A stretch of DNA of 64,000 bases from Nitrososphaerota archaeon (GTDB lineage Archaea; Thermoproteota; EX4484-205; JAAOZP01): NCBI GenBank assembly GCA_011605725.1, contig JAAOZP010000003.1:9032-73031 (forward strand), in the 5' to 3' direction. Positions within the stretch are counted from its first letter, which is position 1, and each line of letters begins with the position of its first letter. A program made the position numbers and the translations under genes. Shown piece by piece: positions 18,782-64,000 of the stretch. The notes beneath the pieces are model-generated. The model made no database searches. It had not been told where the DNA came from and worked only from the letters and a program-made list of their open reading frames with translations.

Positions 18782-19187
18782 GCGTATACTGCTGCTACTA
18801 ATAATATTAAACCTTTACTATGAAAGTATCTAATGCTCAGAGTATTTCTTAGCGCAGCGCGCACCATCATGCGTCAGACTGGATAGTCGATGGGAAGACT
18901 GGGCACGGGCTACATTAACTGTGCATGCTGATGTCAAATACCTGGAGGAGCCTTACAGGCCTAAGCCTGTTCGGGCTACTGACAATGGAAAACGGCTTAG
19001 TATAGTGGGTCCGCAGGCTGATAAAAGTTGGCCATACCCGTCCTGATTAGAACCGAAAACCTCTGTAACCATAAATAATCATAAAGTTGTTTAATATCAA
19101 GCTTAAAGTATTCAATATTTATAAAATAATGCTGATAGCGAATACAAAAAGCTATATAGGAAGCCTGCACAACTTAAAGCGATAGAG

Positions 19188-19586
19188 TTGGCGAAAAAAG
19201 AGGTTAAGATGATAACGGAGTCTGCGTTAAAGAGAGAGGTCGAGCGGCTGGAGAGGAGTCTGACACAGATATCGGGCTATCTTAAGGAGATCCGTAGCGA
19301 ACTCAAATCAACCACTAAGAACATGGGGCAGATGGTCGATGCGCAGAAGCAGATGATTGAGATACAGAAGCAGCTTATCGCGTCTATGAAAACTATGAAG
19401 GCGGCAGCGCCAGGACAAGCCAGGAAACCACGTAAACTAACTGAGATGAACATCTTCGTTAGAGACCAGATAAGGTCTGGGAAAAGCTTTGCAGAGGCAA
19501 TAAAGGCTTGGAAGGAGTATAAGGCATCGAAGGCTGCTCAGGAGAAGGCTGAAACCAAACCCGTAAGCGGGTCAGCAGAAACCTAG
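19188..19586 (+). CDS. Small coiled-coil hypothetical protein.
   Basis: 132 aa, K/E/Q-rich heptad-like sequence. A TATA-like element (TTTATAAAATAATG) lies ~60 bp upstream. Confidence 0.4.
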   Translation: MAKKEVKMITESALKREVERLERSLTQISGYLKEIRSELKSTTKNMGQMVDAQKQMIEIQKQLIASMKTMKAAAPGQARKPRKLTEMNIFVRDQIRSGKSFAEAIKAWKEYKASKAAQEKAETKPVSGSAET

Positions 19587-19743
19587 CCCCAGCCTAAGCT
19601 GAGACAAAACAGACCGGAACGGCGTAAACGGGAACCTGAAAAATATAGGATGAATCTTAGCGCGCGCTACCTCATTCCTTAGCTCGCTTTTTAAACGTCT
19701 AACAGGCTTAAGCGTCAACTGTGCCACGCTCTTTAAGAGTGAG

Positions 19744-20700
19744 TCAGACCTCCGCTGCCGCTAACAGGGTCCACCTTCCAATCTGCTCGTCTCCCTGGCG
19801 GTCAAGTGGTAGTTGAGGCTCGATGATCACCCATCTCCCCTTGGCCAATCCGAATCTCGTCAGGTCTGGGAAGCTCCAATACCTGTATCCGGGCAATTCC
19901 TCAAGATGGACAAGCACCATGTAGTGACGGGCTCCAGTCGCATTCTTGAACGATCCCACGGCTGAGTCGATTCCAACAGCCTCGAAAAGCGAGGCGACGA
20001 GAATCGTATAATCGTCGCAGTCGCCAGACCTCAACCCCAGGGTCTCAACAGGAGCCCGGAAAACATCGTTAACCTCATACTCGTAGTGAACATACTTGCG
20101 TGTGAAGTTCAGTATTTTTCCAATCTTGACAACCGGCGGGTCGGACTCGCTTACGCCGATTATGAGAAGCACCTCGTTGATTTTACTTCTCGCAATATCA
20201 TAGCTCCGCCTTCCAACGATTCTTTCAAACTCAGCCTCCACATCCGGCAAGTATGGGTTGCCAAGATCGTGCTGCGCAAGCCTCGCCGCGAAGACAACCT
20301 GATCCTTAGCCGGGTTTGCACTCTCCCTTGTACCGTCCAACCCTTTAATCAGCCTCACCGCATCATAATACGATTGAAGACTGTTTCCAATCCTTAAAAC
20401 AGCCTCAACACCGAGTTCCCTCCTGAGAACACTGTAATTCCCCATCAGAGACATGTAGGCTGAGCTTAGGTCGGAGAAGCTTGTGTAAAGCGACTGATAA
20501 TTCTCCTCCATCTTCCGGTAGGAGGATGAGAGCTCAAAATAATTAGTCAGAAAGAGAGCGAACAGAATATTCTCCAAAACGATGAAAACAATCAAGCCTA
20601 TTAGAACCAGTCTTCCAGCCTTATGCTCCGGAGGCGGCGGGGGGAATGTAAAAACAATGTTTCTACTCATCTTTCCAACACCCCGTTTCTCAACAGTCAT
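19744..20700 (-). CDS. Membrane-anchored transglutaminase-like (Cys-His-Asp) cysteine protease-fold protein.
   Basis: N-terminal TM LVLIGLIVFIVLENILFALFL. SGDCDDYTILVASLFEAVGIDSAVG is the transglutaminase-like Cys motif. The later His/Asp (ARHYMVLVH…YWSFPD) fit the C-H-D triad spacing. Confidence 0.5.
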   Translation of the reverse strand: MTVEKRGVGKMSRNIVFTFPPPPPEHKAGRLVLIGLIVFIVLENILFALFLTNYFELSSSYRKMEENYQSLYTSFSDLSSAYMSLMGNYSVLRRELGVEAVLRIGNSLQSYYDAVRLIKGLDGTRESANPAKDQVVFAARLAQHDLGNPYLPDVEAEFERIVGRRSYDIARSKINEVLLIIGVSESDPPVVKIGKILNFTRKYVHYEYEVNDVFRAPVETLGLRSGDCDDYTILVASLFEAVGIDSAVGSFKNATGARHYMVLVHLEELPGYRYWSFPDLTRFGLAKGRWVIIEPQLPLDRQGDEQIGRWTLLAAAEV

Positions 20701-20802
20701 GCGTTAAAAAATCTTTCACACAGAACTGTGATTCCCCTCAGGCAGGAGACGCGCGTAAGCCTTTAAAACGTGTTGGACACGTTAAAACATTACTGCCGAT
20801 CC

Positions 20803-25625: not shown

Positions 25626-25763
25626 GAGTAAAGCCGTTGGTGAACTGCTGCTTAGTTATTTAAGCCTTTCAAAATTAACCACTACAGCGCGCGCTATCCT
25701 ATGCTCTAATAAGCATGCTCGCTAAGCTTTTTAAACAACCAGTGCACGCTAAGCAGTAGCCAT

Positions 25764-26849: not shown

Positions 26850-26988
26850 AATGTAGCGCGCTATTCTTCAAGGTGAAGGTTTTTCGAAAAGGCTAACATT
26901 AGACTGTGGGGGAGAATGAAACATTAGCGGATAAGGGTGGGCAAGTATAGAATACTATTTGAACCGCTTCCGATGAAGCGCGTGCTTT

Positions 26989-28269: not shown

Positions 28270-28571
28270 AATGTAATAGTTGTTGAGACAATTGCTTATA
28301 AAATTTTCTCAGTCATAGAGAAATACGATATTAGCATCTGAAAGCCCGCAATATGGTTAAAAGGCCACTCTTAAACCAGAAATCGAATTTTGAGGAAAAG
28401 ATAGGCAGAATCAGGGTAGCGCGCGATTTTCTCTTAAATCCGAGAGACATGATGTGGCAAATCGACTTAACCGAAAAGTTCTTTTTGTTCACCTGAAACT
28501 ACTTGAACAGCTTGGAGTGTCGTCGTTACTTGCTTTAGCGCGCTCTACGGATTATCCCTCGGAATATTGCT

Positions 28572-28700: not shown

Positions 28701-28840
28701 CAGCGAGAGCAACCTGGTCGTAACCCCTCTCCACAGGTAAACCTTGAGAATGGGCGCCATATAAACACCATGCTTGCAAACCCCCTGCCGGCTTATGATG
28801 CTTATTGCAACATTCATTGTAGAAGAGTAGAAATGCTATT

Positions 28841-29260: not shown

Positions 29261-29453
29261 AAGCCTATTTACAATGCTTCCAAGATATAAAAAGCTTGAG
29301 TCTTAAGAAGCTTGTGTACACTATAAGTGCTGGCGCTATTCGAAACGGGTCCAGAATAATGGAGAAATGATTCTTGGCATCTCGCTGGCTGAAGGGTCGT
29401 TCGGAATACTGCTAGAAATGATCATCTTCACTACAAAACCAGAAAAACATGCT

Positions 29454-30305
29454 TCAAACATTGTTTGCTATTTCCCTTAGCTTTTCTCCAACAACTTTGA
29501 GGAAATCTTCAAAATCCCTTTGAGGAAGCTCTATTAATAGCCTTCTTTCGAAAGGGTCTTCAAGAAATCCCTCTACTATTTCCAATCCTTTTCTATTCCT
29601 CTCAAGGTTGCTTCTATACTTCCTGTAATAGAGCGATGCTCTTACTTTCTCAAGAATTTCTTTAGCTAAGTCCTCTATTTTGTAACCGTGTTTTGAGAGC
29701 ATGAATAAATCATAGAAGTCTCTGAGTTTTTGAGCTCTCCTCGTCAGTATAGCTCTTACTTTTTCACACAGGATTTCTCTTTCGTCGTAAGCCATTATTT
29801 GAAGAGGCTTATAGAAGTCTATGAATTCTTCGAAATATGCTTTTTCATCTGTTGATAATTTAGCCCCGTCCAACAAGGTTTTCACAGTGATTTTCTTTAT
29901 CGGGAAAAGCAATTTCTCTATGAAGTTTACTTGAATCTTTATCAGCTCCGAGTTCTTCCAGAGCTTGAACGTCACCATTCTACCTCCACCACCAAACTCG
30001 ATGAAATTCCTGTTTTTAAGCTCGGCTTCAAACCTAAGGCCTAATTTCTCTGAAACTGTTTTCAAAAAAGAGGCGAAATCCTTTATCTCAGCTAAGAGCT
30101 TTCTCCTCAACTTTTTCTCCCCTAAACCGGCCCACATTTCCTGCTCTCTCCATGTAAAGTCTAGGTCAACGCTAAACCTGTAGTAGCCGAAGTAACATTT
30201 AGTTAAACAGCTACCTCCCTTGAAAAGGTATTTATTGAAGAGGGGTGAGGAGCAGAAATCTTTAAGCACTCTATGCAGTATTATGTCTGATTCTATTAAG
30301 CTCAC
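29454..30305 (-). CDS. AbiEii/DUF1814-family nucleotidyltransferase (type IV TA / abortive-infection toxin).
   Basis: FKGGSCLTKCYFGYYRFSVDLDFTW matches the AbiEii motif (GGTAL…RFSEDiDf). Confidence 0.65.
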   Translation of the reverse strand: MSLIESDIILHRVLKDFCSSPLFNKYLFKGGSCLTKCYFGYYRFSVDLDFTWREQEMWAGLGEKKLRRKLLAEIKDFASFLKTVSEKLGLRFEAELKNRNFIEFGGGGRMVTFKLWKNSELIKIQVNFIEKLLFPIKKITVKTLLDGAKLSTDEKAYFEEFIDFYKPLQIMAYDEREILCEKVRAILTRRAQKLRDFYDLFMLSKHGYKIEDLAKEILEKVRASLYYRKYRSNLERNRKGLEIVEGFLEDPFERRLLIELPQRDFEDFLKVVGEKLREIANNV

Positions 30306-30974: not shown

Positions 30975-31266
30975 GATAGTTATTCATGTAACAACCTTTA
31001 AAAATCTTTCTGATTGTTACACAAGTCGTTAGGTCCGATGACAAAGGAAGTCTTCATCAAGCATCACAAGCTTCCCGATGCGCGCGTACGTCAGTTATAT
31101 GGATTCCCCGATGAAAATTAAATATACGTATGTTATGCACCGCCCATGAAGCATAAGGCAATCGCGCGCTGTTCTCAAACCTCTTAGCTCGCGCTAAGGC
31201 ACCAGGGAGAGCTGCCTTTAACCTGTCCAATAAGTTTATGAATACTTTTACTACTTCCTTAAACAG

Positions 31267-32543: not shown

Positions 32544-32704
32544 ACGTTGATTTCGAACTCCTGTCTTTATTAGCACGCGCTGTAGGCGCGCGCGGCTCTT
32601 CAGGGTCTTTCTATCGGTGAGGATGCTGATTTAACCTAGCGTGCGCTCGAGAAAAGAAGTTGGATTGGTAAAACTTTAAATACTAGTAAAACTTTTCCAA
32701 AAAC

Positions 32705-33982: not shown

Positions 33983-34177
33983 TGTTTTTCAAGCCTCCTC
34001 CGCCTCTTATTACTTTCGCATTTTTCAAGCTGAGAAGGGCTTTCACCAGCGCTGCTTCATACAAATCCTTTTTCAAATCGAAAGCGATTCATCCTCGCGC
34101 TTGCCCGTAAGCCCTGTTGGCAGGTAATCTTTTTAAATCATGCGCGTAACCAAGGGGTTTCAGCCTGATGAGTAAGC

Positions 34178-35437: not shown

Positions 35438-35612
35438 TTGGGGAATGCAGTCTTTCGCCGACACTAGCCCGTATTCATCACTGCCACTATGCTTTCCCTC
35501 TCAGGTTTAAAGACCGATGAAGCTAACCCTACAATCATAGTGGGTAGGCGCGCTAAAGGTTGTTGTCAAGTGAAGAAGTGTTATCGAGGAAAAGCAGCGC
35601 GTTAGCGCGCGC

Positions 35613-46915: not shown

Positions 46916-47111
46916 TTAACAGCTAGATCTCCTTTGTTTCTGGATTTTTCCTCAAATTCAAAAAGTACAATAATGATAAATTAACTTAACCGGGAAATGA
47001 GTTCTTCTCTAGGTGTAGCGTGTGCTCTGAGGATGGTTATTGCATGCAACTCATTATTGTGCAGAGATATTAACGAATTCTGACACTAATTCCTCTATAA
47101 CATTCGGCGCG

Positions 47112-47564: not shown

Positions 47565-47636
47565 TTCAGCGCGCGCGCTACTCCGTTGCTTTAAATAAAT
47601 GGCTACTTAAAATATTTAAATGTCGGCTAAAGATAT

Positions 47637-49373: not shown

Positions 49374-49425
49374 TAGATTATTACATACTGGCTAAGGCTA
49401 TATGGCTCTTTCGCGCGCCAACGTA

Positions 49426-49907: not shown

Positions 49908-52856
49908 CTATGCACCTACATTTGCCTCGAGGCCTGCCACTATATCCTTACCAAGGCTTCTAAGCACCCCTGCAGCATCCTCTGGCTTAACCGGCTCACC
50001 CCATTTAAGCTCAAGCCGCACCTGTAGCGAATCTATTCCCTTAAGCCTCCAGAGGAGATCCAGCATGCTCTTACCCTCCTCTTTCTGCAAATCCTCCTTA
50101 TTAATTTCGAAAGAGATCGTGTAACTAGGAGACCTAGGCCTAGTAATCGACCCCGATAACCTTATGTTGCAATTTCTCTCCGGGCCTAGGCGGGTGAGAA
50201 GGTTTTTAATCTCAAGAAGCTGTCCAGCATCATTAGAGGAAATCTTTAAAATCACACTATTAACTTTAGTAAAACGGTCCCGAATAGCTCTCTTCTCTAT
50301 GTCGTTCGCCAAAGTTTCAACAGAGGATTCTGCAAGCACTATTAAGGTTGGACGCACCTTTTCCTCGGTGGGTTCAATTCCCCTCTTTTCCCCAGTATCT
50401 TTAGACACCTTTTCTTTTCCTCGGAGAAGCTTGTCGGCTTCTTCTGGCGTTAGTAACTCGGTGCGCTCATCCATTAAAATAGACTTCGGAGGATTATCCT
50501 TAGTATATATCATGTCTCCACACTTCAGAACCCATACCCCGTTTTCAACACCTCTTCTAACAGTTTCCAGAAACTTATCCTTAGACGACGAAATTATCAT
50601 ACCGGGTTTCCTGTAGAATTGCTCAAACAGCATCCTTATGCTTACGCTTTCTGCCCCCGCTGGCCAAACATTGGAGAACACGTATACAGGGTCAAGAGGC
50701 TCGTCCTTTACCCTGCCAAGCACGTTAACCAGTATATGCTTAAGCATATCGTAGCCACTGGCACCGGAAGCATAGCCGCTTCCATCTCTTACAGGTATTA
50801 CTTTAACTCCCTCCGCATCATAATATACGAAGTTAGAAAAGGCTCCTCTGATGTAGTCGTGAAGATTCTTTTCCTGTCTTGCCAAATACTCTTCAACATC
50901 GTTTTTTCTATCCTCACTTATACCATACTTCTTTAGGTCTCCCTTCACCATCCTCGCCGCCACTACCTTCCTAGCCACTTGCTTCATGGGTTCAATCCTG
51001 TCTTGAGCAGCAACCAGCAGAAACGTGGAGTTGGTGAACATCCTTGCATGTTGACCATGATCATCCCTATGTTCTAGAAACCTTCTAACTCGCTCTGGAA
51101 CAGTTCTGTCTGATATTACGTATTCATTGGGGTTAAGTATTGCGACTTGAATTACGGGCTCGTCGTCAAAGACTTTGCTTGGAGATGATGGGAAGAGCTC
51201 TACATCTATCCAGTCGGGCGATGAAGGAGTTCGTTTGAAAAGCTCATTCCGCAGCTTCTCCTTGATAACCTCTAGAGTTTCGCTCTCAGTTATGTCCCTC
51301 GACAGAAGGTCGATAACCCTTATTGGCGTCGGCTCTCTAACGAAGACAAATCTCTCGCCTTGCCTGTCGACAAAATGGAAGTTTTCTGAAAGATAATCCA
51401 GCACGATGTCACGTACCCTCATAAAGTGTTCCCTCCTGGCCGGCGTGACTAGTAGCGAAACCAGAAGCTCCGACCTAATGCCTTTATCCCCCTCCTTTCC
51501 AGCAGTTAAGCTATAAAGGTAAATCGTATTACAAGCTCTCCTAACGAGCGGTACTCCCCAGTTTTCCTTAGCCTGCTCATCCAGTTTTTCAGCAACAGCA
51601 GTACCGTCACCCTTCCAAACATCGGCTTCCACAGCATTTCTGAGCTTCTGCTCTCCGATATGCGTGGATAATTCGGCAAGCACATCTCGGTCAGCTAGGT
51701 CCACATGGAAAGGATGGATTAAGGTAGCGTCTTCCTCTTTTTCCGACCACATCTTGCGAACAACCTTAACGAGGAGCCGTAAAGCCCCCCTTGTTCTCTG
51801 AAACCTGTCGAGGGTAGCAACCCTCTCGTACAGGACTCTTATTAGATGAGGGTGAAAAGGATAATAATCCCTTATCATATCTCTGTAAGACTTGCTCTTA
51901 AACTCGTCTGGAACCGTTAGACTCTGGTAGAGCTCGTGATAAGCATCAGCCACATCCTCCGCCACCTTACTGTTAATCTTCTTAAACAGGCGTCTCTTCA
52001 AAATGTGGACGGCATCCTCCTCTTCTATCGGGACTAAGACAAGTTCTTTTCTCGCTACATGGGCCCTCGTCTCAGCCATCGCATTCCTAACAGCATCTGA
52101 AACCGCTTGCCTAGCCTTCTCAGCCTCAGACCTGTAAACGTCCTCAGCAATCGCCATCACTAGGACAGCGTCATCCTTCTCGGACACGGCTAGCACAAGC
52201 CTCTGAATCCACATTATAGTCTTATCAAGCATATCCTTCTCGAGGGCTACGAGCTTCAAGTAGGACGGCAACTCGTCGAGAAGAATCAGGACAGGTCCTC
52301 CCTCAAGAACCTTCTTAATGTCGTCGATACCGGGGACCTTTGCTTCCCGGTCAATACCAGCATAGTCATCATATTTGCCCAACTGCCAGAAGAGGTCGCC
52401 CCATATCGTTCTGATTCTGGTGCCGTCCCTAGTTATGCCATCACTCTTATAGTCCTCACCACTGATAGTCACAACCTTCACGTTCCGAGGAAACCTTAGG
52501 TTCCCCAAGAATTCCGAAACCTCGCTTCTGCCACTGTATTTGGCTGCATAATAGAGAGTGGCAAGAGTATGAGTCTTACCGCCGCCGAAGCCAACGTCGA
52601 GGACGATAACCGGGTTTACACCCTTCTTAGTGCCCGACAGCCTCCCGGCTACACTCTCCAATATCAGCCTCATGTTGCTAGTTAAGTGCGTCGCGGATAG
52701 AAATGAAACAGGGTTATCGTAAGGTGGCTTAGCAGTTCCTGAGACAATCGTGGAGAGCCTGAGAGCCAGGTCGGCATCTGTTAACGAGCCTGATAAAACC
52801 TCTTCCCTGGGAATACAAGCCTCCTCATCCCAGACCCGGGGAACATGTTCCGACAT
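49908..52856 (-). CDS. DUF499-family P-loop ATPase (BrxC/PglY-like).
   Basis: P-loop VIVLDVGFGGGKTHTLATLYY near residue 90 of a 982-aa protein. Its size and the N-terminal position of the P-loop fit DUF499. Confidence 0.6.
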   Translation of the reverse strand: MSEHVPRVWDEEACIPREEVLSGSLTDADLALRLSTIVSGTAKPPYDNPVSFLSATHLTSNMRLILESVAGRLSGTKKGVNPVIVLDVGFGGGKTHTLATLYYAAKYSGRSEVSEFLGNLRFPRNVKVVTISGEDYKSDGITRDGTRIRTIWGDLFWQLGKYDDYAGIDREAKVPGIDDIKKVLEGGPVLILLDELPSYLKLVALEKDMLDKTIMWIQRLVLAVSEKDDAVLVMAIAEDVYRSEAEKARQAVSDAVRNAMAETRAHVARKELVLVPIEEEDAVHILKRRLFKKINSKVAEDVADAYHELYQSLTVPDEFKSKSYRDMIRDYYPFHPHLIRVLYERVATLDRFQRTRGALRLLVKVVRKMWSEKEEDATLIHPFHVDLADRDVLAELSTHIGEQKLRNAVEADVWKGDGTAVAEKLDEQAKENWGVPLVRRACNTIYLYSLTAGKEGDKGIRSELLVSLLVTPARREHFMRVRDIVLDYLSENFHFVDRQGERFVFVREPTPIRVIDLLSRDITESETLEVIKEKLRNELFKRTPSSPDWIDVELFPSSPSKVFDDEPVIQVAILNPNEYVISDRTVPERVRRFLEHRDDHGQHARMFTNSTFLLVAAQDRIEPMKQVARKVVAARMVKGDLKKYGISEDRKNDVEEYLARQEKNLHDYIRGAFSNFVYYDAEGVKVIPVRDGSGYASGASGYDMLKHILVNVLGRVKDEPLDPVYVFSNVWPAGAESVSIRMLFEQFYRKPGMIISSSKDKFLETVRRGVENGVWVLKCGDMIYTKDNPPKSILMDERTELLTPEEADKLLRGKEKVSKDTGEKRGIEPTEEKVRPTLIVLAESSVETLANDIEKRAIRDRFTKVNSVILKISSNDAGQLLEIKNLLTRLGPERNCNIRLSGSITRPRSPSYTISFEINKEDLQKEEGKSMLDLLWRLKGIDSLQVRLELKWGEPVKPEDAAGVLRSLGKDIVAGLEANVGA

Positions 52857-52907
52857 ACGATAATAAGAACCCAGGCAAGCTATTTAAATAGTTAGCCTCA
52901 GTACATT
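52857..52907. promoter_or_regulatory. Bidirectional promoter region with a palindromic TATA-like element (TATTTAAATA, 52881..52890).
   Basis: A 51-bp divergent intergenic region lies between the DUF499 ATPase gene (minus strand) and the DUF1156 methyltransferase gene (plus strand). The palindromic A/T box sits ~24 bp and ~17 bp from the two start codons. Confidence 0.35.
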
Positions 52908-55718
52908 ATGCTGAAAATGCCGGAGAAAATCGGCGCACCGGCTGAAAGAAGGGTTCTGATAGACGACTGGTTCCCAGCCGGAGAGGCTAGCGTCGAAAGC
53001 GTGAGAGAGAGGAGTGTAGGTCAGAATCCGCCAATAAACAGAATGCATGTCTGGTTTGCACGCCGACCGTTAGTTGCATCCAGGGCCGCGGTCCTAGCCT
53101 CCATCCTCCCGCCTGATACGACGAGAGAGTCTTTCCTGAGGCTTCTAGGAATCCCGCCGGATAAGGATGTTGTCGGGGCAAGCGAACAGCTGGAGAGGGC
53201 GAAGGCTATGGGAACAAGGCTTGAGCAAAATCCGCTCAGCTGGCCCCGGGCCTTCAAATACACTCCTACTAGGCAACAGCTGGCTGAGCTTAAACAGAGC
53301 ATCTCAAAGTTTTGGGGCAAGAGTGAAGTAACTGTCTTAGACCCAATGGCGGGCGGAGGCAGCATACCCTACGAGGCTCTTCGCCTAGGTCTGAACGTTG
53401 TGGCGATGGACCTGAATCCCGTGGCATTCCTATGCCTAAAGACGACGCTAGAATACCCTACGAGGTTCAGGGGCAAGCTCATACCTGCTGTTAGAGATTT
53501 TTGCGAGAAAATACATGAAAAAGCAAAACTAGAATTGGAAAAATACTTTCCAAAAGGAAAGTCAGAGAACGTATATGCCTACCTCTGGGCAAGAACCATA
53601 AAGTGTCCTTCATGCGGCCTGGTAATTCCGCTCTCTCCCAACTGGTGGATTGTCAGGCAGGGTGACAAGAACGATAAGGCCGTAAAGCTAACCGTCAGTA
53701 ACTCTTCAAATACCTGTTCCTTCGAAATAGTTGAAAACCCGCGCAAGCATGGAATTAATCCGGACGAGGGAACTGACATCGGTAAGGCTGCGAGGTGCCC
53801 GAGGTGCAAGACGACCATCAGCTCAACCGAGGTCAAGAGACAGGCTCAAGAGGGCTCCATGGGTCATCAGCTCTACGCAGTATCAACAAAGACTTTTTTG
53901 AATTTCAAGGAAGTCGAATGGGTCTTCAGGCCTCCTACTCCAGGGGAGATCGAGGCGGTTAGGGAAGCAGAGGAAAGGCTGAGGGAGAAACTGCCAGACT
54001 GGGAATCAAAAGGCCTTGTTCCCGTGGAAGTTATACCTGAAGGGCTAAAGACAAGAGAACCACTGAATTTCGGTCTACGCCGATGGTGCGACCTCTTTAA
54101 TCCTCGCCAACTCCTTACGCACCTGACCTATCTTGAGAAGTTCCTTGAGGCCAAGAAGGAGCTCTTGGAGAAGGCTACAAACGAGGAAGAAAGAGAATTT
54201 GCAAAGGCCGTAGTAACATACGGTGCTCTAGTCTTTGATACTAGTGTTGACTATAATTCGGTTCTTACTAGGTGGGGACCCACAAGACAGGGTATACGGG
54301 GTTCAATGGCTGTCCAGGCATTTCCGTTCAAGACGAGCTACGCTGAGTGGAATCAGCTGGTTCCTAAGGGTGGTTACGAGTGGGCCTTGGAGAAGGTGCT
54401 TGATGCCCTTGAGGAGATCGTGAAGCTTCTCCCCGAAGAGGCTGGCGATGTTAAGGTCTTCTGCGGGGACGCTGCTTCCATCCCGCTGCCTGATGGGAGT
54501 GTGGACTGCATTGTCGTTGACCCTCCCTACTACGAGAACGTTATGTATGGCGAGGTCAGCGACTTCTTCTACGTGTGGTTGAAGAGGCTCGTCGGGGATC
54601 TTTACCCTGAGGAGTTTTCAGGCGAGCTGTCGAACAAGGAGGATGAGGCTGTTGCCAACCCGGCGATGTTCAGAGGCATGGGGGGAAGAGCGAAGAGGTT
54701 AGCGAGCCAGCATTACGAGTCGAAGATGGAGGCCTGCTTCAGAGAGATGAGGAGGGTTCTCAGGGATGATGGGGTTATGGTTGTGATGTTCACGCATAGG
54801 AAGGCGGAGGCCTGGGCCAGCTTGGCAACGGCTTTGATGAACGCAGGCTTCACGTTCAGGGCCTCCTGGCCGGTTGCAACCGAGCCCGGCCAGAAGTTCG
54901 GCAAGGCGGAGAAGGGCGTTCTCAGGATCACCGTTCTCCTGAGGTGTCAGAAGCGCGCCGCCGAGAAGAGGGGACTGTGGGAGGAGGTTAGGAGGGAGCT
55001 TCTGGAGGAGGCGGAGAGGAAGGTTAGGGAGCATGACTCTAAGGGGATAAGGGGCCCGGACCTCTTGGTCAGCGTCTACGGTCCTGTCTTAGGCAGGTTC
55101 GCCGACTACTCTATGGTTAAGGATGCTGCTGGTAACATTAAGACTCCTAGCGACGCCTTGGAAGTGGTGGCTGAAGCTGTTAACAGGTTCCTGACGGAGG
55201 ATATACAGAGTGCGGATGTGGAGACGCTTGCCTACCTCAACCTTCTCAGGAACTTTCCCAATCTGACTGTTGAGTATGACTTGGCTAGGATAACGACGGT
55301 CTTCGGGGGCAACGTCAGCCTGGACCTCCTAGACGTTAAGGGGGGAAGTGGGCTGGTTTGGAAGGAGAAGGGGAAGGTCAGTATTCTGCTCTCTAAGGAT
55401 AGGCTTGCCAACGGTATAATTAATCCTGCGAAGCCTGAGAGGCTCAAGACGCTTATAGACGTGGTTCACGCTGCGCTCATACAGTATGAGAGAGTAGGAA
55501 TGCTGGCGGTGAAAAACCTGTTGAAGGAGAAGGGGAGGGACTACAGGGATTCAGGCTTCATCTCAGCCTTAAGGGCTATCGCGCAACTAGGCTATGATGA
55601 AAACGGGTCTAAGAAGCTTCGTGAAGAAGCGAGGACGGCCAGCACGCTTTTGGAGGCGCTTGGATACAGGCCTGAATCCTTCCTGAGGAAGGGGGAAAAG
55701 ATAACTCATTTCACTTGA
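52908..55718 (+). CDS. DUF1156-containing adenine-specific DNA methyltransferase with a Zn-ribbon (COG1743-type).
   Basis: The N-terminal DUF1156-like block is …NPPINRMHVWFARRPLVASRA…. Zn-ribbon cysteines are IKCPSCGLV…AARCPRCKTT. Catalytic DPPY-type motif VVDPPYYENVMY. Length 936 aa. Confidence 0.7.
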   Translation: MLKMPEKIGAPAERRVLIDDWFPAGEASVESVRERSVGQNPPINRMHVWFARRPLVASRAAVLASILPPDTTRESFLRLLGIPPDKDVVGASEQLERAKAMGTRLEQNPLSWPRAFKYTPTRQQLAELKQSISKFWGKSEVTVLDPMAGGGSIPYEALRLGLNVVAMDLNPVAFLCLKTTLEYPTRFRGKLIPAVRDFCEKIHEKAKLELEKYFPKGKSENVYAYLWARTIKCPSCGLVIPLSPNWWIVRQGDKNDKAVKLTVSNSSNTCSFEIVENPRKHGINPDEGTDIGKAARCPRCKTTISSTEVKRQAQEGSMGHQLYAVSTKTFLNFKEVEWVFRPPTPGEIEAVREAEERLREKLPDWESKGLVPVEVIPEGLKTREPLNFGLRRWCDLFNPRQLLTHLTYLEKFLEAKKELLEKATNEEEREFAKAVVTYGALVFDTSVDYNSVLTRWGPTRQGIRGSMAVQAFPFKTSYAEWNQLVPKGGYEWALEKVLDALEEIVKLLPEEAGDVKVFCGDAASIPLPDGSVDCIVVDPPYYENVMYGEVSDFFYVWLKRLVGDLYPEEFSGELSNKEDEAVANPAMFRGMGGRAKRLASQHYESKMEACFREMRRVLRDDGVMVVMFTHRKAEAWASLATALMNAGFTFRASWPVATEPGQKFGKAEKGVLRITVLLRCQKRAAEKRGLWEEVRRELLEEAERKVREHDSKGIRGPDLLVSVYGPVLGRFADYSMVKDAAGNIKTPSDALEVVAEAVNRFLTEDIQSADVETLAYLNLLRNFPNLTVEYDLARITTVFGGNVSLDLLDVKGGSGLVWKEKGKVSILLSKDRLANGIINPAKPERLKTLIDVVHAALIQYERVGMLAVKNLLKEKGRDYRDSGFISALRAIAQLGYDENGSKKLREEARTASTLLEALGYRPESFLRKGEKITHFT

Positions 55719-55752
55719 GGCATGGAACATAGATGTATAAGCTTGATTAGCA

Positions 55753-56277
55753 TTAGGAATGGATGTCGGAAATTTCCACGGCTTCTATTCTAGACTCTCC
55801 CAGGATGCCCTGTCTCCAAGAGGCTAGGTATTGCTCCAGCTTCTCAAGCCTTACAAGGATCTTCTCAGCCTGCTCCATCTCCCTGCGGCCGTTTCCCTCT
55901 AAGAGCCCTACAGCCTTGGATCCGTGTCTCAAGATGCCTCTGAGCAGCCTGTCATGGTCAACTGATTCACGTTGCCTCTCCACCAGGTGCATGTTTTCTT
56001 GAACGAATTTTCTGAGCGGGGCGTTCATGCTCGTAAGCCTTTTTTCAAGCGCCATCCTTACTTGATTTGTTGAAGGCCTTCTTTCTAAATCATGGTCTAG
56101 TGAGGCGAAATATACGCCAGCCTTATAGATGTGCCTAGCGATAAGCTCATGAGCGCCTTCAACCATGTTTCTCCTGAAGGATTCAAGTCTTCTTTCCTGC
56201 TCGGCGTCAATAATCCTTCCCCTGCTTCTGGCTGAGACCAGTGCTTGCTCAATGCTCTTCCTACAGCTGCACGTCAT
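55753..56277 (-). CDS. Small accessory protein co-transcribed with the PLD-SNF2 helicase. Function unknown.
   Basis: 174-aa ORF whose start overlaps the helicase stop by 4 nt (ATGA), suggesting translational coupling. Confidence 0.4.
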   Translation of the reverse strand: MTCSCRKSIEQALVSARSRGRIIDAEQERRLESFRRNMVEGAHELIARHIYKAGVYFASLDHDLERRPSTNQVRMALEKRLTSMNAPLRKFVQENMHLVERQRESVDHDRLLRGILRHGSKAVGLLEGNGRREMEQAEKILVRLEKLEQYLASWRQGILGESRIEAVEISDIHS

Positions 56278-59200
56278 GCTGATTCCTCCATGCTTAACAG
56301 TTCATCCACTAATTGGATTACCTTTTCTCTGTCGCTTAAAACTTCGGGAACAGCGTCTCCTTCCCTTATTACTCGGAGAGACCCTAATCCATCATGCTCC
56401 TTTATTAGATAGATGCTTTTCGAGGCTTTTAAACCCTTGTTCCCCGTCTTGGAGATTATATTGTCGCAGAGCCATTGAACTATGGGGTGTGCAGGAGTCA
56501 ACACGTTAGGCCTCCCAACTTCGAGACTGGCATTGTTCCATCTTCTCAATTCCTCGGGCAGCTGCTTTTCATCGATCTCCAAACCATTGTCTTTAACGCA
56601 CGCCTTTAATCCCAGTGCTTTCGCTGCTTTTAGTGTGAAGTCTGCTATTCTGTTTATAACGTCTTCATCCGCGGTCTTAGCGCCCTCCCATGACGCTCCG
56701 GTAATAGTTCCCGCGATCCTGGCTGCGCGTTCTTTAACCTCGTCGACTTTCTGTAATGTTTCTGAGACTATCATCCTTATTTTCTCAGTTGTCTCTCCCT
56801 CATCCAGCGCTTTACGCAAACCCTCGCTGATTATTTCTTGAGCCGGACCCACTACTAACCCGTAGATCTCTCTCCTCTGGAAGAGAACACGGTACATCTC
56901 TGCCTCTATGCTTTCAGGGTACCAGATATTCTTCACGAGCACAACGCTGGCTTTCTGCCCCAGCCTATCTGCCCTACCGATCCTCTGCTCAACCTTAGCC
57001 GGGTTCCACGGCATATCAACGTTAATTACCACGTTTGCTGCTTGAAGGTTAAGGCCTTCGCGCGCAGCGTCGCTGCAAACCAGAACCCTTACATTTCCAT
57101 CGGTGAGTTCCCGACTGACCTCGTCCTTGTCTACTGGAACATAAGTGTCTTTCTCCCTATCGTAGACCATGCCGCCTGCACCAGTATAGATGGCGATCTC
57201 CGATTTTGAAAGATACTTGCTTTCTCTTGCAAGGAATCTTGAAACGGCATCAACAGTATCAGTATACTTGCTGAAAATCAGAATCTTATGGCCTTTAGAA
57301 AGCAGGTCGTCTACTACTGAAACCACCTTGCGGAGTTTCGGGTCACCTCTGGAGAGGATGTCCGGAGAATAGTCTCCAAGCTCATTCTCCAACTCTCTTA
57401 GCTTCTGAATCTCTCGCCGTATTAGTTCACCAGCCCCGCTGGCAAGAAGCTCCTGCATGGCCTCTATAATATCCTCCTCATCCCCCTCCCACTCCGGTTC
57501 TTCTATAAACCTGGAGGCTGCAGCGAGGAGCGCGTCTCTATCACCTTTCAAGAGGGCTTCTAAAAATTCCCTCCTATTCTTTACGGTCAGGTATGCTGCC
57601 GTGAAACTGCTTACAAACCTCTGATGGTAGATGCATTTAACAAACCCTATTATCGACTTACTTTCTCCTTTCAGTATTCTCTCATATTGCCCATATTCGT
57701 TTCTAAGATAACTGTCCAGTTTCCTTAGCAACTCCATGTGTTTAGCATCTAGTTCAACCGGCTCCTCCGCAATATGTCTCTCGGGAAAAGAGTATCCTAA
57801 CTCCTTCAGTTTGCTCCTCGTGTTCCGAACCATGAACCATTGCACGGGGTTAAGGGCGAGAAGCAGCTTCCTCAACCGTTCGATCCCATGGTGTTGTACT
57901 ACGTCCACGATTTTTTCCAAACCCTCTCCGGACAGTATGCGTTCAGTTATTGTTTCAGCCGTGTGCTGATCGCCGAAAATCTTTTCAAGAATCTCTTGAA
58001 GCTCTTTCCTGTCAACATATTGACCAGCTATCCACGATGCTAATCTTAGGCAGAATTCCCATTCCGACTTGGTGATGGTAGCCGGGTCGGAGGACAGTGC
58101 TCTGAAATATCTTTGAAAATCCTCCTCGTGAACCCAGGGTCCGCTTAGCCCAAGTATCTGAAGCAGATCCATGGCTTCAGCCTCGTAGAGCTGAACCGGC
58201 GTCGCAGTGACGAGCAGTATGTGAGGAGCTGTAACACTGAGCTCCGCAAGCAGGTCGTTAAGCAGGGTTGGCTCTATCTTCCCAGGGCTCCTCTTCTTCC
58301 TCGCATGGTGGGCTTCGTCAACCACTATTAGGTCGAAGAACTTCCCGGTGTTAAGAAGCTCTGGAGGCCTGTTTCTAGATCCTCGAGCATAATGCCAGGA
58401 GGCTATCATTAAATCAATACCCTGCTTGTCAAAAGGGTTTTCACCGTGCCCTATGGGTATCAACCTGCCTTCAACATCAACGAATTCTTTCCTAAAGGTG
58501 TCGAGCAACCAGAAGCGGAGGCCGAAGTGGCTCCACATCTCCTCCATCCATTGTCTCGCAACATTCTTAGGGGACAGTATTAGGATTCTTTGTGCCCGAC
58601 CCAGCGACACTAGCCTCTTGATTATGGCTCCCGCCTCAATCGTTTTCCCCAGTCCAACCTCGTCGGCAAGCAACACTCTGTGAGGATACCTGGACAGGGC
58701 GAAGTCGACGGCGTAAGCCTGATACGGGTGGAGAGCCACGGGCCCGAGACCCAGGTGGGCGAATTGCCTTATGTTCCCGATTTCTCTAACGAGTCTAGCA
58801 GCCGGGACCAATAATTGGCAGGCAGCAAAATTAGGTATACCCACCCCTTCTATAACCGTTTCGTCTTCCAAAGGGTCTGTTTCAGGAGGCTTTGCACCAT
58901 AATATTTTTCCCTAAGCTTTTTCTCAACCACCTCAGGCAGGGGAAACACGAAATAATCGGGATGCTTATCCTCCCAGAGAACATCAAACCTCTCTGTATA
59001 CCTCTTAATATACTCCTCGTGCCCAGGTTTCCAAGACATGTGAACAGTCAGGTTTTCACCGTTTATCTCGTATGCAGCCCGGGTTTCATTCGCGCTTCCA
59101 GCGGCGGCGATAGTGCAGCCATCAAAATCCCTGAATATCATCAGTTTTTCATGAAAAATGCCATTGCCCAGCCCAAGGAAAGTCTTCTTCGGCAGCGCTA

Positions 59201-59600
59201 CCCTGACTTCAAGCGTGCCGTTCACCAGCATCCAGGCTAAGGCTTCAATCCTTCTCCGAGCTATTATATCCTCAGCCTTTTCAAGTCCAGCAGCTATTCT
59301 CTCCCCGATCTCGCGGATCAGTTCCTCAGCCCTTTCCCTACTCATCCTGTATGCCTCTACGAGATCCGGCTCCACATCGTGAAGCCCAACTATCAGCTTC
59401 ATCCGCCCATTGTTCCTCAGGAGACCAGCTATGCCGGCGGCCACAACAATAAGGGAGTCTGCGCTGAAAAAGCCCGACAGCCTCTCGTAATAGCAACATC
59501 TTTTAAGAACAGGAATGTAAAAGCGCTGGGCTATAATATTTCCATCACCCTCATACATTATCTCGAGACTGGAGCCGAGTTCCTCATAGAGGCATCCCAT
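56274..59600 (-). CDS. SNF2-family helicase with an N-terminal PLD-type (HKD) nuclease domain.
   Basis: HKD-like GNGIFHEKLMIFRD. Helicase motif I LLADEVGLGKTIEAG. Motif II DLIVVDEAHHARK. C-terminal helicase domain (…VLVCSDAAREGLNLQ…, arginine motif QRIGRADRLGQ). Confidence 0.75.
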   Translation of the reverse strand: MGCLYEELGSSLEIMYEGDGNIIAQRFYIPVLKRCCYYERLSGFFSADSLIVVAAGIAGLLRNNGRMKLIVGLHDVEPDLVEAYRMSRERAEELIREIGERIAAGLEKAEDIIARRRIEALAWMLVNGTLEVRVALPKKTFLGLGNGIFHEKLMIFRDFDGCTIAAAGSANETRAAYEINGENLTVHMSWKPGHEEYIKRYTERFDVLWEDKHPDYFVFPLPEVVEKKLREKYYGAKPPETDPLEDETVIEGVGIPNFAACQLLVPAARLVREIGNIRQFAHLGLGPVALHPYQAYAVDFALSRYPHRVLLADEVGLGKTIEAGAIIKRLVSLGRAQRILILSPKNVARQWMEEMWSHFGLRFWLLDTFRKEFVDVEGRLIPIGHGENPFDKQGIDLMIASWHYARGSRNRPPELLNTGKFFDLIVVDEAHHARKKRSPGKIEPTLLNDLLAELSVTAPHILLVTATPVQLYEAEAMDLLQILGLSGPWVHEEDFQRYFRALSSDPATITKSEWEFCLRLASWIAGQYVDRKELQEILEKIFGDQHTAETITERILSGEGLEKIVDVVQHHGIERLRKLLLALNPVQWFMVRNTRSKLKELGYSFPERHIAEEPVELDAKHMELLRKLDSYLRNEYGQYERILKGESKSIIGFVKCIYHQRFVSSFTAAYLTVKNRREFLEALLKGDRDALLAAASRFIEEPEWEGDEEDIIEAMQELLASGAGELIRREIQKLRELENELGDYSPDILSRGDPKLRKVVSVVDDLLSKGHKILIFSKYTDTVDAVSRFLARESKYLSKSEIAIYTGAGGMVYDREKDTYVPVDKDEVSRELTDGNVRVLVCSDAAREGLNLQAANVVINVDMPWNPAKVEQRIGRADRLGQKASVVLVKNIWYPESIEAEMYRVLFQRREIYGLVVGPAQEIISEGLRKALDEGETTEKIRMIVSETLQKVDEVKERAARIAGTITGASWEGAKTADEDVINRIADFTLKAAKALGLKACVKDNGLEIDEKQLPEELRRWNNASLEVGRPNVLTPAHPIVQWLCDNIISKTGNKGLKASKSIYLIKEHDGLGSLRVIREGDAVPEVLSDREKVIQLVDELLSMEESA

Positions 59601-59965
59601 TAGTTATCTTAGAAACCATGCAGCGGTATTTAAAAATTGATTCGTATTTTCATCCACATTAAAACTGTAGGCATGCTGCTTAAATAGCTCTTTATTCGCA
59701 CTTGACGAAAAATAACAATGAGTGAAAAGCTTGCCGAGCTCAGCATGGTACGTGGTTAAACAAGTTCTTACGCGCGTAGGGATGAAGGAATCAGAGGTAT
59801 TGCAAAATATGTGAAGAACTTTATGTTCTCCAAAAGGAATTTGAGTGTAAAGATTATTCTTTCAGGTAGCGTGCGCTAAAAACTGGTTTAAACTTTTTAA
59901 ATACGGCTAATTCTTATATATTGCAACTGGAAAGTGTTTTATTAATAAGCGTGGCACGCGCTAAA

Positions 59966-61660: not shown

Positions 61661-62379
61661 TACAACTTCGCCAATCCTAATAAGTTTTTCGCTGGTAGGG
61701 CACGCTAAAGACGTTTATGTTAGAGTATTGTTTCTACTCTTCAACTATGAATCCTTCTTCAATCAGGATTCTTCTGCAATCCTTGCAGAGCGACTTCAAC
61801 CATTTGGCAAGTAGTCTTCTCTCCTGTTCCGCAGACTTTATTTTAACGCTGAAGATCCTGTCGAACCTCCTCTGCACTCTTTGCACACGAGGTCATACTC
61901 TGAGGAGCGCATTCCTTGAGATAGAAGGTAGGGATAATTTAAGCGTTTGTTGTCAAAAACAACAACATGTTGCACCCAGCGTCATAAGCCTTTTTAACAC
62001 GGTTTGAATTAGCACGCGCTTCTCCTCCTAGCTTAAGGAAGGTTAGCGTAGCTAAACTTAAGAGTGTGACAAAAGGTTCAAAATTTTGGTAGACGTGGTT
62101 AAAGATAAGAATACATTGCGTTTATGCAGATTTGCTTAATTTCAAAAATGAAAAAGAAGCTTGAAACAGTGTTTAAGGAAGCGCGCGCGCTCTGACGCTC
62201 TAAAATAGCAATGAGTGGTAAATGGATGTAATCGCAGCGTGCTTTCGCTGACTTTAAAAATCAGGCTGTTCACGACCCTTTTTCAGAGACCTCTGATAGG
62301 CTTGAATTGGATAACGGAAGTACGGTATGATTTATTCTTAAGGCAAAGCTTAAAAGTAGTATGTAAGGCTTATAGTTGG

Positions 62380-62607
62380 ATGAGAAAAATTATTCAGGTG
62401 AGGGTTTACAAGGGGGAGAAATACTACGTTGCTGAGTGTGTTGACCTGCCTGTTGTCAGCCAGGGGAAAACGCTGGACGAGGCTGTGGAGAACATAAGGG
62501 AAGCGATAAGCCTCCATCTTGAAGGAGAGGATTTAAGCGAATGGGACATACTTCCAGATTTTTCCATACTGATTAGCATGGAAGTCCCTCCTCATGTCGA
62601 GGCTTAA
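62380..62607 (+). CDS. hicB: HicB-like antitoxin (UPF0150 / RNase H-like fold).
   Basis: MRKIIQVRVYKGEKYYVAECVDLPVVSQGKTLDEAVENIREAISLHLE is the HicB N-domain pattern. The ORF-track extension upstream to 62215 is probably not translated. Confidence 0.6.
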   Translation: MRKIIQVRVYKGEKYYVAECVDLPVVSQGKTLDEAVENIREAISLHLEGEDLSEWDILPDFSILISMEVPPHVEA

Positions 62608-62836
62608 AGTATTAAGCGGGAAAGACGTAGTTAAAATACTTTCAAGGTTTGGATTCATACCAGTGTCTCAAAAAGGAAGCCATGTGAAGCTAAGGAGAAC
62701 CCTGCCTAGCGGGACGATACAGTCTTTAACAATTCCTCTACACGAAGAGTTAGACAAGGGAACTTTAAAGGCAATCTATAGGCAAGCCTTAAGATTCATC
62801 CCTGAAGAGGAGTTGAAGCCTTATTTTTACGATTAA
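62594..62836 (+). CDS. hicA: HicA-like mRNA interferase toxin.
   Basis: LSGKDVVKILSRFGFIPVSQKGSHVKL is the HicA (YcfA-like) motif with its catalytic His. It overlaps the hicB stop. Confidence 0.65.
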   Translation: MSRLKVLSGKDVVKILSRFGFIPVSQKGSHVKLRRTLPSGTIQSLTIPLHEELDKGTLKAIYRQALRFIPEEELKPYFYD

Positions 62837-63176
62837 TTATGAAGCGTTGAAATAGGTCTTCGCTTAAATCAACAAAAAAGGAGAGCTTCAAAACACGATT
62901 CTAGAATCGGGCTACGAGTTACGAGCCTCAGAAAACTATTCCTAAGGAGGAAGCTTAGCGACTAAGGTTCTCAGCTGCAGCAACCATGTAGTGCGCGCTA
63001 GTATAGTTGTTGTGTGAAGAATAACTCGTGGAATGCCTTTAGCGCACGTGAAGTTTTTAAACGGGTTTTCTAAGACTGCTGCATTCTTTTGCATGCTTAC
63101 TTTCACTCAACCCTCTCCCTCAAGCGTTTACTTTCCTAAGATTCCTGCATGGTTGGAAAACCTTTATCTTAAGCCT

Positions 63177-64000
63177 ATGCACACTATATATGGAATGGTT
63201 GGGCGCGCCTTTCTGAGAGGCCTGTTCTACACCATATTCTCCTCCTCAATCCTCATGCCCCTCCTCTTCTCCAGCCTAATTCCTCAATCAAGTAGGCCAA
63301 CGGCCTCGGCAACCCCATCATCCTACTCCTGGAGCAGCCTTAGGGTAGACTCAGTAAGCATAGCTTACTCTGTGGATGAAAGAGCCTGGTACGGCGGTAC
63401 AGGATACCTCCACATCAAAACCAATGGCCAAGGAGTCTACAGCGACACGAAGACTGCCACGGCAGTAGTGACTATACCTGAAGGCCTCTCCGCAAGCGTT
63501 TACGTCTGCGGTGACGATAGGTTTCCGCCTCCGGACGGATGGACTGTTTTAGAGAAATATCTGAGGCTCTACGTTGACGGGGCTAAGGTTTACGAGCTTG
63601 GCAAGGAGTACTGGTGGGCCAAATGCTACAGGAGGGCTGCCACCATCGGTCAAGGAACGCATGAGGTCAGGCTGACTGTGGGCATCACGATTAACGTTTC
63701 TTCAAACGCCTACTTGGAGTGCGACCTAGCTTACGCAAGCATGGACATTAGGCTTGAGGGAAGCGGAACAATAATGGCTGAATCTCATGCTGCTGAAGCA
63801 GCCCTAGACGGGGAAACAAACCATGTCTTCACTTTCAGGCTTCCCCAAGTTAGCGGCGTTAGAAACATGAGCTGGAGGGCAGTATGGAGAGGCGTTGAGA
63901 AAACCGGTTATGGAACACCGGGAAGTGTTCAGAAAGCGGTTTTTCAAGATGTAAACAGAGACTGCTGGTCGTTCACCAGTCCGGTTGTGATCAGAGTTGG
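63177..64000 (+). CDS. Secreted/surface hypothetical protein, 3'-truncated by the window edge.
   Basis: The ORF is open from ATG 63177 to the end of the window. N-terminal hydrophobic signal-like segment GLFYTIFSSSILMPLLFSSLIP, then an S/T-rich linker. Coding-like composition. Confidence 0.4.
   Translation, partial: MHTIYGMVGRAFLRGLFYTIFSSSILMPLLFSSLIPQSSRPTASATPSSYSWSSLRVDSVSIAYSVDERAWYGGTGYLHIKTNGQGVYSDTKTATAVVTIPEGLSASVYVCGDDRFPPPDGWTVLEKYLRLYVDGAKVYELGKEYWWAKCYRRAATIGQGTHEVRLTVGITINVSSNAYLECDLAYASMDIRLEGSGTIMAESHAAEAALDGETNHVFTFRLPQVSGVRNMSWRAVWRGVEKTGYGTPGSVQKAVFQDVNRDCWSFTSPVVIRV

Follow-up and report, generated by a model that had tools for sequence, protein, structure and literature searches.

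A stretch of 64,000 nucleotides from a Nitrososphaerota archaeon (contig JAAOZP010000003.1 of assembly GCA_011605725.1, positions 9,032 to 73,031 of the forward strand), here called the window, carries many copies of a short GC-rich palindrome centred on GCGCGC, and the question raised by this locus is what such a palindrome is. An earlier note on this DNA had proposed four roles: a short dispersed repeat, a regulator-binding site, a promoter element close to the B recognition element (BRE), or a signal for termination or processing. Only the first of these fits the outcome of tests of spacer type, TATA spacing and T-run association. The element is a short, dispersed, lineage-specific repeat that occurs in non-coding DNA only and turns over. 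It is located at rearrangement joints between strains, with the break between a TAG/CTA flank and the GC core. The tracts resemble a short repeat, or a scar of DNA repair, of a new kind.

A palindrome of non-coding DNA

Genes were defined as the longest non-overlapping open reading frames (ORFs), a crude set that makes 89% of the window coding, agrees with the JGI gene calls and leaves 6.9 kb (10.8%) of intergenic DNA. The window holds 36 matches to GCGCGC at 27 distinct sites, compared with 7.24 ± 2.81 (maximum 15) in dinucleotide-preserving shuffles. For AGCGCGCT, six matches stand against 0.74 in the shuffles. Intergenic DNA takes 27 of the 36 GCGCGC occurrences, which corresponds to 3.9/kb in spacers and 0.16/kb in ORFs, a difference of about 25-fold. 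The ORF density is at the chance level, estimated at about 0.14/kb from base composition. The intergenic enrichment claimed earlier is borne out, both against composition-matched shuffles and in the comparison of coding with intergenic sequence within the window. All 25 coordinates listed for the motif at that time lie at most about 12 nt from a real alternating-GC tract. Those near 59766 and 62005 are alternating GC as well, but they read CGCGCG and CGCGC and not GCGCGC.

None of the other GC-rich hexamer palindromes GGCGCC, GGGCCC, CCGCGG, GCCGGC and CGGCCG has an intergenic copy in the window. A second null model, in which intergenic DNA alone was shuffled with its dinucleotide content preserved, gave 3.6 ± 2.3 words of the form (GC)3+ where 52 are observed, and no enrichment of (AT)n, (AC)n or (AG)n in spacers was found under this shuffle. 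General microsatellite instability is ruled out, since these other dinucleotide repeats are unenriched. A genome-wide drive, such as very-short-patch (VSP)-type biased repair or restriction avoidance, is ruled out by the chance-level density in coding DNA. An assembly artefact is likewise ruled out: assemblies made independently from several samples show the same copies and junctions, and the k-mers used by assemblers are far longer than the repeats. The words that most distinguish spacers from genes are half-sites of the palindrome, CGCGCTA (18 intergenic, 1 coding) and GCGCGCTA (16 and 1, respectively), and these outrank TATA-like words.

The consensus can be written as [T]A(GC)3-5T[A], for example TAGCGCGCTA; it is self-complementary and has a strictly alternating G-C core. 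On the 81.9-kb contig, core lengths of 6, 7, 8, 9 and 10 nt were found in 18, 8, 6, 2 and 2 cases. When 72 tract edges are aligned, position -1 is A at 50 and position -2 is T at 30 of them, and no conservation was detected across these edges beyond position -2; a GTA flank (GTAG head) occurs at 6 of the 72. Many spacers also contain decayed copies that are one or two CpG transitions (CpG to TpG or CpA) away from the consensus, such as TAGCGTGCGCTA, GCACGCTA and TAGCGTGTGC. Tracts deep inside genes (54953, 57059 and 63203) are without the A/T flanks and look like chance occurrences; one within-gene tract codes for Ser-Ala-Leu in an ATPase. A repeat search and a sensitive all-against-all BLAST of the spacers revealed no longer repeat unit or MITE (a miniature transposable element with inverted repeats) around the copies, and returned only the motif itself plus an unrelated 95-nt duplication.

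Sequence outside the window is available from the JGI metagenome contig Ga0311297_1014352 (90.9 kb), bases 9067-73066 of which are identical to the window. Further copies lie on this contig at window coordinate -7605 and near +71860. GCGCGC is missing from window positions 1-18856, which contain only about 0.8 kb of spacer. Neither this gap nor the lower density of the core-like part (-9 to 18.8 kb) relative to the accessory-rich part reaches significance (P=0.09).

Relatives, strains and rearrangement joints

The relatives compared comprise 80 GTDB species representatives and 78 further metagenome loci with the pyrophosphatase gene; L-numbers (L001, L092, L100 and so on) label the compared strains and metagenome loci. 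Same-species strains, which are about 99% identical and come from at least six samples, have the enrichment too. Tract density per kb of spacer is 3.6 in window 18.8-64 kb, 2.3-3.6 in the same-species strains L099 and L001, 4.1 in L109 and 1.2 in the sister lineage L100. Almost all of the compared relatives show no such enrichment, and their baseline, taken over 156 other Bathyarchaeia loci, amounts to 0.12-0.20 tracts per kb of spacer; spacer tracts are 20-30 times commoner here than in related archaea. L100 is close to the window species (pyrophosphatase 98%, DNA 80-95% identical), and L108/L109 represent an organism of 52% GC with a pyrophosphatase 88% identical and the same A...T flanks. 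By pyrophosphatase identity, a 180-aa marker of poor resolution, the carrier lineages are not mutual nearest relatives, and L109 is no closer to the window species than motif-free lineages are. Given this patchy distribution among relatives, the repeat looks like an evolutionarily young trait.

Only one spacer, that of the MFS gene, can be compared between the window and L100. Both have a copy in it, that of L100 abutting a conserved promoter block and that of the window lying about 24 nt further away, a shift that implies turnover and no positional conservation. Among the 99%-identical strains, substitutions affect 1 of about 150 columns within copies versus 2.8% elsewhere in the spacers, which is not a significant difference.

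The strains differ by about 10 structural-variant junctions. Of these, about 5 coincide with alternating GC tracts that are 5 nt or longer, and a further 2 with decayed copies. Alternating tracts of this length cover about 3% of spacer DNA, and a rough post-hoc estimate for the junctions gives P ~0.002. The break position between flank and core is recurrent. At the -7605 junction, a truncated AAA_14/DUF4143 ATPase pseudogene, whose coding homology extends to at most 3 nt from the tract, is fused to a GH5 cellulase gene, of which only the 3' part is present, via GAGCGCGCG. This joint recurs in three independent assemblies. The cellulase gene is intact in four other strains, where the sequence runs from ...gactcgcct directly into CTATAC... 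at the break and has no GC tract. No intact ortholog of the truncated ATPase was recovered, the best match having 80% aa identity, and two contigs from more distant matches (L193, L194) belong to unrelated organisms and are without the motif.

Further joints of this type separate the window from other strains. L002 has CGCGCG in place of an 888-bp segment with nearly all of an AbiEii ORF, and in L092 AGCGCGCGCT takes the place of about 24 nt of AT-rich spacer that both the window and L091 possess. L090 and L092-L096 are without window 39011-45787 (6.8 kb), and here the TAG^CGTGC of the copy at 39001-39012 is joined to a TAG within an SPL-like gene, with a 3-nt TAG overlap. The window, in turn, is without 26 nt that are found between two adjacent copies in L001, L002 and L099, both ends of this indel being core/flank boundaries. 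Homology with L099 ends inside the CGCGC at 34096-34100.

Two further differences concern L099 and L003. In L099 (5831-6790), a 961-bp insertion with a minus-strand ORF replaces GTTG at window 28808-28811 and ends in a decayed copy, TTAGCGTGCACTA. L003 is without window 2005-17471 (15.5 kb), a block with a 560-aa ORF, a helix-turn-helix (HTH) protein, DUF6785, an M28/FtsX giant protein, an OPT transporter, a GH130 enzyme and a 786-aa ORF, and its joint lies off any GC tract.

The favoured explanation, which is partly inferred and is held at a probability of roughly 0.45, is that of a mini-palindrome, short, dispersed and specific to its lineage, which originates at sites where non-coding DNA is broken and joined and which also promotes such events. 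DNA breaks would be joined through A(GC)nT tracts in either of two ways. An existing copy may be the break-prone or annealing-prone partner, which is joined to the other end via TAG/CTA microhomology. Alternatively, a short (GC)n filler may be laid at the joint, either copied from another copy after TAG priming or added and annealed, the latter being conceivable because (GC)n pairs with itself. Every joining event would leave or move a copy, and copies would survive only where an insertion of 8-12 nt does no harm, so that spacers and the borders of accessory gene cassettes would collect them. Turnover would be rapid and proceed by gain, shift, decay through CpG transitions and loss, with persistence in non-coding DNA only. 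The outcome would be a self-propagating scar or mini-repeat that makes spacers prone to recombination.

Several observations weigh against this explanation. The junction statistics comprise about 10 events, which were defined after looking and stem from strains of one species, and since copies sit in most long spacers, some coincidence with junctions is expected. Two junctions lie off copies, namely the 15.5-kb indel relative to L003 and the L190/L191 junction at 61727, and the filler at the L099 insertion is GTTG, not GC. The direction of most events is not established, the cellulase side of the -7605 junction being the only one with a clear ancestral state; with a single polarised side and no ancestral ATPase, a de novo filler looks the same as an older copy brought in with its flanks. 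No enzyme for making or cutting the tracts was identified, and the low substitution in copies among strains would also fit purifying selection on a functional site.

If the tracts are indeed repair scars or self-spreading mini-repeats, they would allow past breaks and joins to be read from the DNA of an archaeal lineage that is uncultured, and would provide a mechanism for the strain-to-strain swapping of defence and toxin-antitoxin cassettes. They would also extend selfish palindromic elements, so far found mainly in bacteria (REP), cyanobacteria (HIP1) and organelles (GC clusters), to archaeal chromosomes. Their practical value is that of a lineage marker, and they are a source of assembly breaks.

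Gene signals, competing explanations and known families

The mini-palindrome does not behave as a gene-expression signal and is indifferent to promoter and terminator context. In spacers of at least 100 nt, its density is 5.5/kb in convergent, 6.5/kb in divergent and 5.2/kb in tandem arrangement. The earlier note placed many of the sites upstream of a TATA-like box, at 10-20 bp, which could not be upheld as a rule: only 1 site has such a gap versus 4.5 expected from random placement in the same spacers, gaps of 0-10 nt number 10 versus 10.6, and no preferred spacing to TATA-like hexamers departs from that random placement. Neither a fixed architecture nor a fixed position relative to the TATA box or the transcription start was found, and the element is not conserved at the orthologous promoters of relatives (pyrophosphatase, MFS). 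A conserved operator or a core promoter element would not be expected to have a variable core of 6-10 nt, nor to be missing in almost every related species. The note's further remark on copies immediately after the 3' ends of genes is correct: 10 copies lie within 10 nt of an ORF end versus 5.0 expected, a weak excess (P=0.02), and some supply or overlap stop codons. An enriched intergenic palindrome, it should be cautioned, need not be a regulatory site.

The main rival, although unlikely, holds that the copies are binding sites of an abundant lineage-specific protein, such as a global repressor or a nucleoid-associated or boundary protein, or targets of an orphan methyltransferase, and that the link with junctions is a by-product of their ubiquity in spacers. 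The perfect dyad is typical of dimeric binders, and many perfect copies are retained, as the spacer bias of GCGCGCTA illustrates. The slightly lower substitution in copies points in the same direction, some copies overlap BRE, TATA or start regions (e.g., 39143-39152 and 47568-47580), and a horizontally acquired protein could give the patchy distribution. However, cores that vary from 6 to 10 nt in single-nucleotide steps would rotate the half-sites, which is unusual for an operator. No positional rule applies relative to TATA boxes, starts or stops, convergent spacers are equally dense, and the copy in the MFS promoter differs in position between the window species and L100. One copy fuses two truncated coding sequences and others replace deleted segments, and no candidate protein was identified.

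Less probable still is a sequence-specific nuclease or recombinase that cuts TAG^(CG)n^CTA and excises or inserts cassettes. It might be restriction-like, a recombinase that shuffles cassettes, or of a homing type, for example the PD-(D/E)xK domain found in the multi-copy AAA_14/DUF4143 ATPases. The repeated breaks between the TAG/CTA flank and the core would suit such an enzyme, as would the presence of copies on both sides of individual accessory genes (GmrSD, both ATPase genes and the 150-aa ORF 47112-47564). Among the multi-copy ATPases, a copy marks the exact point of truncation of one, and a 95-nt direct repeat flanks another. On the other hand, the site of a self-targeting nuclease should be depleted, not 25-fold enriched, and the partner sequence has no tract in the intact cellulase gene, in the window allele at 29405/30292 and in the spacer 45841-45925. 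Partner sequences so often without the site argue against classical (reciprocal) site-specific recombination. The element also differs from att, attC or dif-like sites in that the partners at three junctions have no tract and that Pfam scans of the window ORFs, the source of all protein annotation here, revealed no transposase, integrase or recombinase encoded in the window.

A bolder form of the favoured explanation is about as improbable as the nuclease. It envisages an undescribed archaeal end-joining or micro-transposition process in which, at a break next to TA(G), a short self-complementary (GC)n tail would be synthesised, or copied from an existing copy, to serve as a heat-stable universal sticky end, each repair planting a copy. 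Such a process would be autocatalytic, might have been ignited independently or transferred in a few hot-spring Bathyarchaeia lineages, and would drive the gain and loss of defence and toxin-antitoxin cassettes.

A structural role of the DNA is very improbable. Thermal clamps or Z-DNA-prone elements that limit melting, or how far supercoiling spreads, in the AT-rich spacers of a thermophile would fit GC-rich tracts within 40% GC spacers of a hot-spring organism, and the independence from spacer type suits a generic physical role. Equally thermophilic close relatives from the same springs are, however, without tracts, 6-10 bp is short for a B-to-Z transition, and the conserved A/T flanks and the association with junctions are left unexplained. 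Alternating-GC patterns are, moreover, generally suppressed in prokaryotic genomes (PMC4060949). An RNA-level termination, processing or stability signal is more improbable still: several copies do lie just past stop codons (26853, 47106, 49411 and 62010) and neighbouring copies could pair, but divergent spacers, where no 3' ends are expected, are equally dense, T5 runs show no association (3 versus 2.3 expected), location at 3' ends with a T-run or hairpin was not found, an Rfam scan of the window gave no match, and a self-complementary tract of 6-10 nt cannot fold alone.

Among known families, the element comes closest to REP, HIP1 and the GC clusters of yeast mitochondria. It answers to the general description of these repeats but lacks the features by which each family is defined, and is a member of none. 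No description of such a motif in archaea or Bathyarchaeia was found in the literature. REP/REPIN sequences are short GC-rich intergenic palindromes that occur in many copies, are lineage-specific and often clustered, and act as hot spots of rearrangement and insertion sequence (IS) insertion (PMC2817692, PMC3116915, PMC3733652). The element here is likewise short, GC-rich, palindromic, multi-copy, lineage-specific and, by its spacer and coding densities, intergenic. In contrast, REPs are imperfect stem-loops of 20-40 nt that are accompanied by a RAYT gene and have a conserved head, GTAG or CGTC, whereas the copies here span 8-14 nt, have no loop and no extended similarity, and conserve only the A at -1 and the T at -2. 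No RAYT (Y1 HUH transposase) was found among the ORFs scanned with Pfam, a result that applies to the window.

HIP1 (GCGATCGC, cyanobacteria) is also a perfect palindrome, GC-rich and very short, with an enormous excess of copies that is confined to some lineages. Robinson et al. are said to have found it at deletion borders in the 1990s. It is an octamer of fixed length and is abundant inside genes too, unlike the element described here, with its core of 6-10 nt and its chance-level density in genes. The function of HIP1 is unresolved, and it has been linked to DNA methyltransferases (PMC6604393, PMC6105098).

Closest in behaviour are the mobile GC clusters of yeast mitochondria and other organelle genomes. 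These are sporadic GC-rich palindromes in AT-rich spacers with rapid turnover, merging and shuffling; they have a role in recombination, their mechanism of spread is unknown, and their short conserved flanking nucleotides have been read as target-site duplications (PMC4478555). The yeast mitochondrial clusters and the element have in common palindromes in AT-rich spacers, a sporadic occurrence among strains and species, and short flanks. They differ in that the clusters are stem-loops of about 30-50 nt with direct AG/TAG flanks, whereas copies of 8-14 nt with inverted TAG...CTA flanks are found here on an archaeal chromosome.

Two further comparisons can be made. Excision footprints of Tc1/mariner and IS630 transposons are short palindromic inserts with TA on both sides and a variable centre. 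The element is also a short palindromic insert bracketed by TA, but its copies lie at large deletion and replacement junctions and not at simple empty sites; neither the window nor the related loci yielded a TA-targeting transposon, a MITE or a transposase. With archaeal transcription-factor operators it shares dyad symmetry and a location in spacers, sometimes over BRE, TATA or start sites, but it has no fixed length, no fixed position and no conservation at orthologous promoters, and it occurs in convergent spacers.

Catalogue of copies and genomic setting

Table 1. Copies of the palindrome and related sites of strain variation, in window coordinates.
Feature	Position	Remark
TTAGCGCAGCGCGCA	18848-18863	Divergent spacer upstream of MFS gene
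TTAGCGCGCGCTA	19656-19669	Convergent spacer; 1-nt flank indel varies among strains
ACGCGCGT	20749-20756	Tandem spacer
CAGCGCGCGCTA	25685-25696	Divergent spacer of pyrophosphatase gene; same in six strains; none in other species' homologous promoters
GTAGCGCGCTA	26853-26863	Convergent spacer, 6 nt after stop codon
GGTAGCGCGCGA	28415-28426	
TTTAGCGCGCTCTA	28534-28547	L001, L002 and L099 have TAGCGCGCTA-N16-GAGCGCGCGCTA in its place; 26-nt indel
888-bp segment, nearly whole AbiEii toxin ORF	29405-30292	L002: 6 nt CGCGCG instead, junction TAGCGCGCGC
Three copies, TGCGCGCGT, TCGCGCGCT, TTAGCTCGCGCTAAG	31079-31198	One divergent spacer; L099: one CpG C-to-T
TAGCACGCGCTGTAGGCGCGCGCG and variant TAGCGTGCGCTC	32571-32648	
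CGCGCGC	33405-33411	Overlaps final codons of UDG gene
CGCGC	34096-34100	L099 homology stops within tract
GTAGGCGCGCTAA, GCAGCGCGTTAGCGCGCGCGTT	35545-35614	
AAGAGCGCGCTCTT	35822-35833	Within doubtful 68-aa ORF
Three copies, CTAGCGCGCTAG, GTAGCGCGCTAA, AAGCGCGCGA	37346-37572	Upstream of AAA_14/DUF4143 ATPase gene
GAGCGCGCGCTC	38228-38241	3' end of PIN gene fragment
Decayed copy GCGCACGCTA (reverse strand TAGCGTGCGC)	39001-39012	Left endpoint of 6.8-kb deletion
ACGCGCGCTA	39143-39152	Methyltransferase gene: 7 nt upstream of TATA-like box
Copy-free spacer in window	45841-45925	L092 ortholog: about 24 nt AT-rich replaced by AGCGCGCGCT
Decayed copy TAGCGTGTGC	47016-47025	
GGCGCGCTA	47106-47114	CTA is stop codon of minus-strand 150-aa ORF
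AGCGCGCGCGCTA	47568-47580	Between 150-aa ORF and GmrSD
TCGCGCGCC	49411-49419	Convergent spacer
Three copies, TACGCGCGTA, TAGCGTGCGCTA, GGCACGCGCTA	59770-59963	Upstream of ORF at 59998
Decayed copy GCACGCTA	61700-61707	18 nt from L190/L191 homology breakpoint
TAGCACGCGC	62010-62019	Immediately after stop codon
AGCGCGCGCGCT	62180-62191	
TAGTGCGCGCTA	62989-63000	

The nearest genomes to the window are metagenome-assembled genomes of hot-spring Candidatus Bathyarchaeia, with pyrophosphatase identities of up to 94%. Core genes in the window encode the inorganic pyrophosphatase, UDG, permeases and a GH130 enzyme, and a tRNA scan found no tRNA genes. The many accessory genes include PIN/MazE, ParE and HicAB toxin-antitoxin pairs and AbiEii. 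Others encode two AAA_14/DUF4143 ATPases, a methyltransferase-HerA-NurA cluster, GmrSD and a DISARM-like block that consists of DUF499, a DUF1156 methyltransferase and an SNF2/PLD helicase. A defence island extends over window 39168-42858, 47637-49373 and 49908-59600, and comprises the N4/N6 methyltransferase with HerA-like and NurA-like genes, the GmrSD type IV restriction enzyme and the DISARM-like block. Its 6.8-kb part from the methyltransferase-HerA-NurA genes to SPL is missing in strains L090 and L092-L096. N4/N6-type methyltransferases are encoded at 39168-40070 and 52908-55718.

The AAA_14/DUF4143 ATPase gene at 35897-37192 (minus strand) is bracketed by the 95-nt direct repeat (35612-35707 and 37485-37578), whose two copies match at 100% for 69 nt and at about 92% for the 26 nt that follow. 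A gene insertion with a long target duplication would look like this; no empty site was found in any strain. Many relatives of the truncated ATPase at -7605 (proteins P0001-P0045) are DUF4143-only proteins of 130-280 aa. N-terminally truncated copies seem to be common in this family, although some are perhaps cut by contig ends.

The spacer segment of about 120 nt between two copies at 28427-28547 is 87% identical to L092 1661-1788, which lies beside a radical-SAM gene, and is weakly similar to the spacer after the window's own radical-SAM gene (46945-46992). A small RNA gene is one possibility for this segment, a shared 3' region another. A common promoter-like box, (T)TAGCTCGC/GCTCGCTAAGC followed by TTTTTAAAC, was seen 11-22 nt after two copies, at 19679-19696 and 25717-25736. 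One of the two TAGCTCGC/GCTCGCTAAGC boxes sits in a convergent spacer without a called gene and may therefore belong to an unannotated transcript.

The first 54 bases of contig Ga0311297_1014352 (L185 1-54, outside the window) read ...GTCTCGTGGGCTCGGAGATGTGTATAAGAGACAG, presumably the Illumina Nextera adapter, and homology with other strains begins only at base 55. The PIN_3 toxin gene (38211-38483 and the upstream ORF) is split into ORFs of 48 and 90 aa in the window and most strains, and is a single 137-aa ORF in L090 (9306-9719). At 21430 and 21924, the strain differences consist of 3-6-nt GGC-repeat indels inside the zf-AN1/M50 peptidase gene and of a 2-nt A-run indel in a small ORF.

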